Notes: generated by a model not told the origin, from the sequence alone. Numbered from the stretch's first letter, positions 18,495 through 20,075 are shown. The stretch: DNA of 48,706 nucleotides from Candidatus Staskawiczbacteria bacterium (GCA_026395295.1 JAPLYZ010000020.1:1-48706); one strand, 5' to 3'. Made by a program: numbers and translations.

Positions 18495-19625
18495 CTATTT
18501 TATAAAATAAATAATTTCGTAAATTACTCCTAACAAAAACACTAAAGACAGGGGGTATATTATTATATTCTTGCCACCTATTTTTTTGTACATTAACAGA
18601 ACTAAAATTCCATCAATGCCCAGCAAAACTCCGCCCACAAAGGACAACAAAGGTATAAAAGATTTTAGCCCCAGCAAGAAGAGTATCATTGGCGGAAAAC
18701 ATGTCATTATAAAAGCCTGCCAATGCTTTATTTTCAAATCAAACATCAGGGTTTTCTTAAAAATAATTCCCTGGGTAATAAAGGCTGTAAAAGTGGCCAG
18801 GGCTCCTATTAAAAGAGAAATAAACACCAAAGCGCTCGGCAGAAAAGATTTTAAACCTTGCAAAGCAGTCGGGTCTGTTTGAGTTCCCGTTATTCCCAAT
18901 ATTAAAAGAACAAATAGAAAATAAAAAACTGAAACCGTTATGGTGGAAGCTGTGACTATTGTTTTTAATCTTTTTTTATTCGTACGCAACATTTCCTCCA
19001 CCTCGGGTATCAACCCAATTCCCCACAACGCAAACAACAGCGGACCGTATGGCAGAAAAACGTTTTGAAAATTGGAAATTAAAAATTGAAAATTACCGAA
19101 TATATTGCTGAGTTTTATTTGTGAGAAGCCTTCTACAAATATAAAAAATAAAGATAAAAAAAGCAAAGCGATTACCCAAAACTCCACCTTGGCAACTACC
19201 TTTATATCAAAATAAATTATCACGCTTGCTATTAGAAAATAAATAAAAATGTAGGTTAAAACACTCCCAGAAAATATGGGTTGGAAAACCGATGTTAAAA
19301 ATTGACCTCCTATTAGAATATAAACCAAAAGCACTCCAACAGTTCCAAAAATAACCGAAGCCGATGTAAAAAGTTTCGCCCATTTTCCCAAATAATACCC
19401 TACAAACCCGGGGAATCTTTTAAAATCTGGGGTCTTTAAACTTATCTGGCAAAATATAAGGTTTATGGCGACAACCAGCGCAGTCAAAACCAAGAAATAC
19501 AAAAGCATCAGCCAAATGCCGGTTTTCACGGCGACATAAGGCAGAGACAAAAAACCAACCCCAATCATTCCTCCAGAAAAAACCGCAATCGGATAAATAT
19601 AATTTTTTAGTACGTCTTTAAACAT
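18495..19625 (-). CDS. Aromatic amino-acid permease (HAAAP/TyrP-like)
   Basis: GGMIGVGFLSLPY N-terminal motif, about 11 TMs, YG.LLFA..G...IP. Confidence 0.85.
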   Translation of the reverse strand: MFKDVLKNYIYPIAVFSGGMIGVGFLSLPYVAVKTGIWLMLLYFLVLTALVVAINLIFCQISLKTPDFKRFPGFVGYYLGKWAKLFTSASVIFGTVGVLLVYILIGGQFLTSVFQPIFSGSVLTYIFIYFLIASVIIYFDIKVVAKVEFWVIALLFLSLFFIFVEGFSQIKLSNIFGNFQFLISNFQNVFLPYGPLLFALWGIGLIPEVEEMLRTNKKRLKTIVTASTITVSVFYFLFVLLILGITGTQTDPTALQGLKSFLPSALVFISLLIGALATFTAFITQGIIFKKTLMFDLKIKHWQAFIMTCFPPMILFLLGLKSFIPLLSFVGGVLLGIDGILVLLMYKKIGGKNIIIYPLSLVFLLGVIYEIIYFIK

Positions 19626-19648
19626 TAATATATTTTACCATTAAAAAC

Positions 19649-19672
19649 AAAAACGAGCCAATGGCTCGTTTT
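19649..19672. terminator. Intrinsic terminator after the tRNA-Glu/GIY-YIG unit
   Basis: AAAACGAGCC-AAT-GGCTCGTTTT. Confidence 0.7.
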
Positions 19673-19677
19673 CCCAA

Positions 19678-19739
19678 GTGGTCCCAATGGGATTTGCCCA
19701 GTCATCCGACTGGGCATCAGGTCGTATGACCTGATGAAC
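19678..19739 (-). repeat. Duplicated tRNA-Glu 3' end with a 40-nt twin hairpin at the T-loop position
   Basis: 19678-19696 is identical to 19996-20014; hairpins at 19696-19715 and 19716-19735 are followed by GAAC (GTTC on the minus strand). Confidence 0.85.
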
Positions 19740-19995
19740 TATCTTGGAATTTTATCAAAACATCTCTCAATTGTTGTCTCAACAATCTTCTTCCTTCCGT
19801 TGTCTTTAAAAATTTCTCTCTTCTCGCCGCATCCGATTTCAATAAATACGCCTCATAACAAATAAGTTTGGGCTGTTTATTTTTTGTAGAAATAACATTA
19901 CCAAGTTTATGTTCTTGGATTCTTCTTTCCAATTCGCTTGTAAATCCTTTATAAATTTCCCCAGTATTTAATAACAAAAAATAAACATAATACAT
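19717..19995 (-). CDS. Small GIY-YIG nuclease (YhbQ/UPF0213-like)
   Basis: YYVY...IYKG.T..L.RR..EH..G; A.RREKFLK. Confidence 0.92.
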   Translation of the reverse strand: MYYVYFLLLNTGEIYKGFTSELERRIQEHKLGNVISTKNKQPKLICYEAYLLKSDAARREKFLKTTEGRRLLRQQLRDVLIKFQDSSSGHTT

Positions 19996-19996
19996 G

Positions 19997-20071
19997 TGGT
20001 CCCAATGGGATTTGAACCCATGTTACTTGCTTGAGAAGCAAATGTCCTAGACCAGGCTAGACGATGGGACC
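19997..20071 (-). tRNA. tRNA-Glu (CTC)
   Basis: Cloverleaf with GGTCCCA/TGGGACC acceptor stem, anticodon loop TT-CTC-AA and T-loop TTCAAAT; CCA not encoded. Confidence 0.95.
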
Positions 20072-20075
20072 GCGT

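Follow-up and report, generated by a model that had tools for sequence, protein, structure and literature searches.

According to excerpts of two reports, SegB of phages T4 and T6 is a free-standing GIY-YIG homing endonuclease encoded in a tRNA gene cluster, and its gene is inherited preferentially through the cutting of DNA that does not carry it (PMC2330249, PMC13096335). A 48,706-nucleotide (nt) stretch of Candidatus Staskawiczbacteria bacterium (GCA_026395295.1 JAPLYZ010000020.1:1-48706; the whole stretch is called the window here) carries at its tRNA-Glu(CTC) gene a short cassette made of a GIY-YIG nuclease gene, a double hairpin, and a second copy of the tRNA 3' end. As with SegB, the nuclease gene lies outside any intron and among tRNA genes and, as with Seg-type genes, presence varies at orthologous sites, the same tRNA-Glu spacer being empty, full, or occupied by a "mini" form among 19 relatives. 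Seg proteins are larger and include a DNA-binding part, and a separate DNA-binding module is also present in I-TevI, whereas the protein examined here consists only of a catalytic domain of about 85 amino acids (aa) with no such module (92 aa, one Pfam domain). SegB lies between tRNA genes, but this cassette lies inside the tRNA coordinates, with the tRNA end duplicated and a double hairpin present, and its hosts are cellular (the candidate phyla radiation [CPR] and other bacteria) rather than phages.

Mobile open reading frames (mORFs) of fungal mitochondria are a second close system. As described in excerpts of one paper, they make gene hybrids (Allomyces atp6; Glomus atp6, atp9, cox2, and nad3), an endonuclease open reading frame (ORF) being inserted together with a replacement gene end; the native end is displaced downstream and resembles that of relatives, while the inserted end is divergent (PMC3630166). 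The window cassette likewise combines an endonuclease ORF with a second copy of the terminal part of its host gene (a 19-nt repeat here, with 16 full copies elsewhere). Judged by eye, the displaced end may be native-like at three other loci, the copies in the window being identical. In contrast to mORFs, the targets are tRNA genes in bacteria instead of mitochondrial protein genes, the break point is fixed and universal (T-loop positions 56|57), the junction carries a hairpin module, and there is also a mirror form in which the 5' part is the duplicated one. Double-hairpin elements of chytrid and fission-yeast mitochondria are short, GC-rich, formed by two adjacent hairpins, and thought to be mobile, according to excerpts of PMC10085805, which cites Paquin and Lang 1996 and Paquin et al. 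1997 and 2000 on these elements. The likeness is in this described form; the hairpins here go with a nuclease cassette and with a single exact position in tRNA genes.

In IS200/IS605 elements with TnpB and a guide RNA, a structured end abuts a flank equal to the target, beside a short fixed motif. Here too a structured end abuts a target-like flank, with GGTTC as the fixed motif, but neither TnpA nor TnpB was found (Y1 transposase profile search) and the nuclease fold is a different one. Minimal GIY-YIG proteins of the UPF0213/YhbQ type (PDB 1ywl and 1zg2) have the same size and domain, and no function or tRNA linkage was found for these two in the literature searched. Unlike tRNA islands borne by an integrase, the insert is without a recombinase gene. 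By analogy, the cassette would work most like a free-standing homing endonuclease (SegB) combined with the gene-end duplication of mORFs. The excerpts consulted describe for neither SegB nor mORFs an entry point in a universal RNA-gene loop, a layout existing in two mirror forms, or a junction marked by a conserved double hairpin. No description of bacterial tRNA-linked GIY-YIG cassettes was found in the full-text literature searched, which did not cover subscription journals. We consider it likely that the insert is one copy of a widespread family of selfish cassettes of about 0.3 kb, of homing-endonuclease type, which enter the T-loop at 56|57 and carry their own homology arms.

Anatomy of the tRNA-Glu(CTC) locus

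Coordinates refer to the minus strand and are counted from the start of the window, which lies on contig C15 of a 0.9-Mb genome (G000; 20 contigs, 46 tRNAs, 97.6% complete). The features, in the order in which the minus strand is read, are:

19996-20071, minus: intact tRNA-Glu(CTC) (ARAGORN; Rfam RF00005 at 19997-20071, 62.2 bits)
19717-19995, minus: ORF of the 92-aa GIY-YIG nuclease (Pfam PF01541, E 1.2e-10)
19736-19739, minus: GTTC, the cassette-borne left half of the T-loop site, G(G)GTTC in most relatives
19696-19735, minus: double-hairpin element of two abutting 8-bp stems with 4-nt loops (sequence, folding, covariation)
19678-19695, minus: displaced copy of tRNA positions 57-74, called the remnant (sequence, blastn-short)
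19649-19673, minus: intrinsic-terminator-like hairpin and T run, matching the terminator directly 3' of the tRNA in the empty allele of a relative, G041

The discriminator base of the tRNA-Glu (A19997) is followed by C19996 and then by the ATG of the ORF (19995-19993), the last seven codons and stop of which run through GTTC and hairpin 1, so that the TGA (19719-19717) lies within the 3' arm of that hairpin. Hairpin 1 (ATCAGGTC-ATAC-GACCTGAT, 19735-19716) and hairpin 2 (GCCCAGTC-GGAT-GACTGGGC, 19715-19696) each have a perfect 8-bp stem and abut one another, and the copy of the tRNA 3' end (AAATCCCATTGGGACCAC, 19695-19678) follows. Counting the preceding C, the exact repeat is 19 nt, with 100% identity to tRNA positions 58-76 by blastn-short, and its first copy is the last 19 nt of the tRNA-Glu (19996-20014). 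When all 46 tRNAs were compared with the genome by blastn-short, only seven partial matches lay off the tRNA genes, the tRNA-Glu remnant among them. Alignment with the empty allele of G041 shows an insert of 318 bp (19678-19995), placed between C56 and R57 of the T-loop. The RNA fold of 19640-19760 reached -51.7 kcal/mol (z = -6.1), with 0 of 200 shuffles equally good; of the Rfam 15 covariance models run over the region, tRNA alone passed, other matches being far under their gathering scores.

An earlier note, made from the sequence of this DNA, had placed the nuclease ATG 1 nt after the discriminator and the end of the ORF inside the hairpins after GTTC. It had also described the second tRNA 3' end as an exact 19-nt repeat, two perfect 8-bp hairpins set in the T-loop between TTC and AAAT, and a terminator 3' of the repeat. 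Each of these points is borne out by ARAGORN, Rfam, the ORF coordinates, blastn-short, and the sequence itself. Its suggestion of co-transcription fits the placement between tRNA and terminator: as the displaced end stops directly ahead of the native terminator, cassette and tRNA are most likely co-transcribed. That the element is small and integrase-free is also supported, since matches to the tyrosine recombinase profile PF00589 occurred only on contigs C6, C17, and C20, with none on C15, and the insert holds one 92-aa ORF (the serine-recombinase profile was not searched).

The note had further named an assembly artefact, if shown by read mapping, as a refutation. In Logan, a 2,210-nt contig of run X2 (depth 90) covers 19400-20043, a 3,753-nt contig of run X6 (depth 44; from a sample without a possible-source flag) covers 19400-20050, and a 195-nt contig from a third study (X9) covers 19632-19826, all with 0 differences. 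Single contigs join the permease start, terminator, remnant, hairpins, ORF, and 3' part of the tRNA, and they end inside the tRNA, where words common to the tRNAs of other organisms accumulate. As one contig holds both repeat copies, the hairpins, and the ORF with 0 differences, an assembly artefact is excluded. Integrated islands typically show direct repeats of a tRNA 3' end, and the locus might be read as an artefact or as the decayed stump of an island borne by an integrase; with zero-difference independent contigs spanning both repeats, and with a recurrent 318-bp insert that has no integrase on its contig, the chance of this is negligible. A further contig of run X2, at depth 10.5 against 90 for the main one, returns from 19739 to 19696, giving a tandem 44-nt unit of GTTC and hairpins, and may be a variant or the locus of another organism.

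Recurrence of the layout, the hairpins, and the nuclease

Within the genus, the full layout was found at tRNA-Lys(CTT) (with a stop in the ORF) and tRNA-Glu(TTC) of G017 and at the orthologous tRNA-Glu(CTC) of G003. In other families of the order it was found at Gly-GCC, Gly-CCC, Gly-TCC, Ser-GCT, Ser-TGA (twice), Ser-CGA, and Leu-CAA tRNAs. The layout was also present at Val, Thr, Asn, Arg, and Pro tRNAs in metagenome-assembled genomes (MAGs), including Kiritimatiellae and Verrucomicrobiota, and the remnants of the Thr-CGT and Asn-GTT copies matched at 17/17 positions. Using one genome per species, 80 loci encoding 46 to 75% identical proteins were identified in many Patescibacteria classes and in other MAGs, labeled (bin labels taken as deposited) Kiritimatiellae, Verrucomicrobiota, Victivallales, Omnitrophota, Cloacimonadota, and Gammaproteobacteria. 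Allowing at most 1 mismatch per stem, and taking 230 to 340 nt from the tRNA as "full," 16 distinct full-distance copies and 29 minis were counted; the remnant matched the neighboring tRNA at 16 or more of 17 positions in 9/16 full copies and 5/29 minis.

Linkage to tRNAs is strong: a same-strand tRNA lay within 17 nt of all nine homologs from the order with at least 60% identity, and one lay within 300 nt of 29 of the 60 with 39 to 53% identity. From 149 distinct intact ORFs, 20 had a tRNA at most 30 nt upstream, 57 had one at most 60 nt downstream, 26 had one within 300 nt, and 46 had none. The ORF was detected in 101 of 401 genomes of the order (E <= 1e-12), many copies containing stop codons, as expected for elements decaying after invasion.

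The mirror layout, with the tRNA downstream, is thus commoner among intact ORFs than the window type (57 against 20 of 149). It runs from a dead tRNA 5' part ending in GGTTC through the hairpins, GAATCC, about 15 nt, the ATG, and the ORF to an intact tRNA. Between the dead 5' part and the live tRNA, 71/71 (L187), 70/70 (L242), and 68/71 (L230) positions agree, and the duplicated part is 54 to 75 nt. In both layouts the hairpins split the T-loop at 56|57 with both half-sites kept, and the long side is the displaced tRNA piece, the short side that of the cassette. Older dead tRNA copies carry extra single hairpins in anticodon or D loops.

The double hairpin is present in 10 copies in G000, six behind a tRNA (Glu-CTC, Gly-TCC, Arg-CCT, Arg-TCG, Arg-CCG, and Ser-GGA) and four away from tRNAs. 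The five copies at tRNAs other than Glu lack the ORF (minis) and consist of the tRNA, 4 to 32 nt, G(G)GTTC, the hairpins, and an 18-mer resembling a tRNA 3' end, which equals the end of the adjacent tRNA for Gly-TCC, has one mismatch for Ser-GGA, and has several in the three Arg cases. The four non-tRNA copies form a sister subfamily, some lying inside protein genes at TTC|AA-like sites. When a copy in a tsaE-like gene (L017) was compared with five relatives, the site was a variable loop with no clean duplication boundary; for a hairpin-only copy (L025), the comparison gave flanking matches alone.

A search of 41 genomes listed 16 matches to the hairpin pattern and one of 401 genomes about 70, the reversed pattern giving 0; preceded by GTTC, the pattern occurred in 23 of the 401 genomes of the order, the reversed control again giving 0. 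GTTC-oriented copies lay nearly always 4 to 105 nt (mini) or about 250 to 275 nt (ORF between) behind a same-strand tRNA, and the tRNA-end-like 18-mer followed them in the loci that were fetched. Three unrelated hairpin sequence families occupy this same position: one with a GTC/GAC core (G000), one with ATG/CAT and 5-nt loops (G017, G024), and one with TCCGCC/CCAGCC (G003, G232).

Across 25 exact pattern matches, for which complementarity was not demanded, Watson-Crick pairs were found at 239 of 250 free positions; the six G-T pairs and five other mismatches are too few to separate selection at the RNA level from selection at the DNA level. In 45 aligned copies, T4, T5, and C6 of G(G)GTTC were invariant and 11 of 16 pairs showed changes on both sides. 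Pairing in this set was 99.2% against 20 to 44% with slid partners, a percentage inflated by the choice of copies at no more than 1 mismatch per stem. Minis in which the remnant departs from the neighboring tRNA keep this pairing as well, which suggests that the hairpins do more than travel with the cassette.

The hairpins could instead be an independent palindromic repeat, similar to a miniature inverted-repeat transposable element or a repetitive extragenic palindrome, that tolerates or prefers T-loop-like sites in dead tRNA pieces and has nothing to do with the GIY-YIG gene. The 4 of 10 copies in G000 that lie away from tRNAs speak for such a repeat, as do single hairpins in other loops of dead 5' remnants. 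We regard it as quite unlikely, because all 16 full copies, and those 16 of 19 examined mirror loci that have the downstream tRNA on the contig, show the hairpins precisely at 56|57 and retain both half-sites, because unrelated families share this position beside related ORFs, and because of the near-constant placement of GTTC-oriented copies behind a tRNA. The genome also has no HUH transposase: the Y1/HUH profile PF01797 had 0 matches in G000, at 97.6% completeness, in a search whose control matched 6 of 14 known genomes. Single GTC/GAC-core hairpins were seen in the anticodon, D, or variable loops of dead 5' tRNA copies at L192, L198, L213, L195, and L220, and loops of dead tRNA genes seem to collect them.

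The 92-aa protein matches PF01541 over residues 1 to 69 with 42 bits (cutoff, 22.6) and has no second domain. Across 18 relatives, which range from 82 to 102 aa, Y3, Y5, G17, R25, E28, H29, Y47, E48, D55, E60, and K64 are invariant and Y15 is nearly so; the GIY, YIG, Arg, and Glu motifs that mark the GIY-YIG superfamily (Tyr-x-Tyr, Tyr-x-Gly, Arg, and Glu) lie within this set. The closest solved structures by sequence are PDB 1ywl (E 1.7e-5) and 1zg2 (E 1e-4), both "hypothetical" UPF0213 proteins, and a search of NCBIfam with the protein returned no family. A homodimer model received a high interface score (ipSAE), the best of three controls scoring nil, with very high local confidence (pLDDT) for the partners and complete agreement of contacts between runs; the ipSAE mark, a model confidence and not a measurement, is attained by 20/30 solved homodimers and 1/23 solved monomers. 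The modeled interface comprises residues 44 to 59 and 75 to 82, including E48. The nuclease is probably a symmetric dimer, which would suit a near-palindromic T-loop box (TTC|GAA in many tRNAs, TTC|AAA in the tRNA-Glu here), and, as a candidate site-directed DNA enzyme, it is among the smallest.

In 9 of 19 translated ORFs (10 including that of the window), the ORF runs through GGTTC into the hairpins, with tails such as GSPGHTTGRPVE, while others stop ahead of GGTTC; the hairpin-encoded tail is probably incidental. The agreement between nuclease clades and tRNA isotype is weak (32 changes, where shuffles gave 36.2 and 32 as their minimum, on a weakly resolved tree); this would fit a nuclease that recognizes something shared by all tRNAs, the address coming from the arms.

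A host function, in which a tRNA-linked nuclease and an RNA structure serve tRNA gene maintenance, processing, or regulation, would agree with intact, conserved ORFs (18 invariant columns in the alignment of relatives), with hairpin pairing maintained even in minis, and with a unit that lies within the transcription unit of the tRNA. It is very unlikely in view of the patchy distribution (ORF in 101/401 and hairpin pattern in 23/401 genomes of the order), the stop codons in many copies, the 60 to 75% identical proteins in distant phyla, and the differing presence at the same locus among species of one genus.

Orthologous spacers, remnants, and a proposed route of entry

The spacer containing tRNA-Glu, between the genes for a penicillin-binding protein (PBP) and the permease, could be read in 19 relatives (L027-L049). 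It is empty in G041 (78% identity over the stretch, among the most similar relatives), where the tRNA is directly followed by the terminator in a 147-nt spacer. The spacer of G003 has a full cassette with another hairpin family, that of G024 a mini with the third family, and that of G021 a remnant without hairpins. No double hairpin or tRNA remnant was seen by eye in the other 15 spacers, two of which are long (G018, 431 nt; G015, 319 nt), and no cassette-type ORF was reported in those 15 by the searches covering them (one covering all and one covering six genomes of the genus). The differing states indicate that this one locus was therefore entered several times independently within the genus. 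Within this region (19626-20075 in the window), the tRNA-Glu(CTC) gene has the same orientation as its neighbors in 6 relatives and the opposite one in 13, and an inverted T-arm fragment is also present in the G021 spacer; an inversion or a replacement of the tRNA gene seems to have taken place within the genus.

The origin of remnants was compared by eye in three cases. The Arg-CCT remnant of G000 has one mismatch to the Arg-CCT 3' ends of G041 and G018 and five to its own neighboring tRNA, and the live Arg-CCT tRNA is 96% identical to those of G005 and G014, sharing its 3' end with the latter. Similarly, the Arg-CCG remnant of G000 pairs perfectly with the acceptor 5' strand of the syntenic allele of G008. 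In G024 the remnant is identical to the allele found in G005, G008, and G003, and the live tRNA shares the first 28 nt of that allele and then differs, with a G2-U71 pair; this tRNA is a chimera. Two minis are stacked behind one tRNA-Glu in L183. These sequences would fit the import of a foreign tRNA allele with the cassette, the resident end being shifted downstream. Between species of the genus, tRNA-Arg and tRNA-Glu genes for one and the same isoacceptor differ strikingly in acceptor and T-stem sequence, and five acceptor variants of tRNA-Arg(CCG) were seen.

The same remnants bear on a transposon-like alternative, in which the GIY-YIG protein would be a transposase, the double hairpin an element end, and the 18- to 19-nt repeat a target-site duplication from staggered cuts at 56|57 and after 74. 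The exact 19-nt repeat at the window locus agrees with this, and so do hairpin-only copies in protein genes at TTC|AA-like sites, some mini remnants unlike the adjacent tRNA, and the low-depth contig with a tandem 44-nt unit. We nevertheless think it unlikely: the hairpins are at one end only, the duplication in the mirror layout (54 to 75 nt) is far beyond a stagger, and remnants match at no more than 15/17 positions in 7/16 full copies and 24/29 minis although the hairpins are still paired. Moreover, the mismatched remnants resemble alleles of relatives.

Homing into the T-loop, the reading we prefer, would proceed with a cassette of three parts: a replacement for tRNA positions 57-74, the minimal single-domain GIY-YIG gene, and G(G)GTTC with the 40-nt double hairpin. 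The replacement would keep the tRNA intact, the original 3' end being displaced to just before the native terminator. We infer that, in a tRNA gene still free of the cassette, the nuclease would break the T-loop box, which is nearly palindromic (TTC|RA), at 56|57. Repair would then copy the gene that bears the cassette, with homology supplied on the left by the intact tRNA and on the right by the 18-nt remnant; for mirror cassettes, the left arm would be the dead 5' part and the right arm the live tRNA. As both arms lie in the tRNA, no homology outside it would be needed, and with a T-loop break the duplication would span the T-loop to the tRNA end. Cassettes with such arms would work in unrelated genomic contexts and phyla, the incoming tRNA allele could overwrite the resident one, and tracking of isotype would be weak. 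Expression would come by read-through from the tRNA promoter, with the native terminator at the end. The double hairpin, which sits at the break point of the remnant and splits that site, may act as an insulator, as a structure bound by the nuclease, or as an RNA end structure.

The earlier note had read the locus as a minimal selfish element, had named recurrence at other loci or genomes beforehand as its refutation test, and had proposed comparing empty and filled alleles in relatives. The layout does recur, at no fewer than 16 further tRNA genes of other genomes, and both states are present at the orthologous tRNA-Glu spacer. Its reading stands as regards tRNA linkage, the lack of an integrase, recurrence, and the T-loop insertion point; the 10-copy hairpin family, the ORF-less versions at five tRNAs, and the mirror layout had escaped it. 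The recognition of the hairpins by the nuclease that it also supposed is conjectural, hairpins being present without the ORF too and, in another subfamily, within protein genes. If homing cassettes of this kind exist, tRNA genes, the most conserved and repeated targets in any genome, would host a dedicated class of minimal selfish cassettes, a bacterial counterpart to mitochondrial mobile ORFs, which cross phylum borders and overwrite tRNA alleles. This would explain the diversity of acceptor and T-stem alleles within one genus and the scattered tRNA fragments in ultrasmall genomes.

Several points weigh against homing. The intact tRNA of the filled allele and the other 45 tRNA genes keep a perfect T-loop site, and a plain T-loop-specific double-strand nuclease would therefore cut its own host. 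An 18-nt right arm is short for RecA-type recombination. Perfect hairpins in ORF-less minis with differing remnants suggest a hairpin function that is absent from the homing model. The two repeat copies at the window locus are identical, and the locus therefore cannot separate imported from native ends, or homing from target-site duplication. No joint that skips the cassette (empty allele), or other junction, was seen in the Logan contigs of the runs, which are contig-level data only. The three remnant-allele comparisons by eye concern few cases and involve no tree, full copies were classed by distance with individual ORFs unchecked, and the protein tree (83 columns) is weakly resolved, 19 of its 145 inner branches being starred.

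A variant with a guide would bring the hairpins into the mechanism. By analogy with the guide RNAs of TnpB, which read the flank of the transposon, the hairpins and the 18-nt remnant might together serve as a guide, either at the end of a transcript or in single-stranded DNA form, for a nucleic-acid-guided GIY-YIG nuclease: the hairpins would hold the nuclease dimer, the remnant would pair with a matching tRNA gene beside GGTTC, and the cut would fall at the scaffold-guide junction, 56|57. The hairpins would therefore abut the remnant exactly and stay paired without the ORF, and clades would not track isotype. We hold this to be a long shot, and it would share the self-targeting problem.

Other tenants of tRNA genes and other GIY-YIG genes

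At a locus syntenic with tRNA-Arg(CCG), ARAGORN reports a tRNA with anticodon TTA ("tRNA-Stop"; L279, G023:C3, ~365330-365405), which could be a suppressor or a mutated Arg tRNA. In L276 (G017:C32), a noncoding insert of about 165 nt lies 3' of tRNA-Arg(CCG) and is followed by TTTTC and an exact 18-nt copy of the tRNA 3' end; this insert has no GIY-YIG ORF and represents a different type of occupant of that T-loop position. A conserved, structured-looking sequence of about 200 nt starting with GGGTGCGAG was found 3' of the Arg-CCG locus in L277 (G019), L278 (G002), and L280 (G008). The noncoding inserts of G017, G019, and G021 had no Rfam match, and at Rfam gathering thresholds L277 contained no family besides tRNA.

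Small GIY-YIG genes are also present in G000 away from tRNAs, bracketed by inverted repeats, at L003 (C8:5973-6215), L004 (C2:33221-33457), and L008 (C8:26071-26274). The inverted repeats of L003 and L004 are ACCCCGTTAGAA / TTCTAACGGGGT, and L008 has a repeat of about 30 nt with an inner hairpin. Two further GIY-YIG genes of G000, L005 (C20:11744-11989) and L006 (C14:6382-6603), have a common leader of 100 to 150 nt with a long-range stem, CACTTCGC ... GCGAAGTG. In L006 the leader begins immediately 3' of tRNA-Ala(CGC), and in L005 it begins behind a GTCCACCA fragment. A 28-nt copy (92.9%) of tRNA-Ala(CGC) positions 45-72 lies 3 kb downstream (C14:9292-9319), with the L006 gene and others between, and may mark a larger insert.

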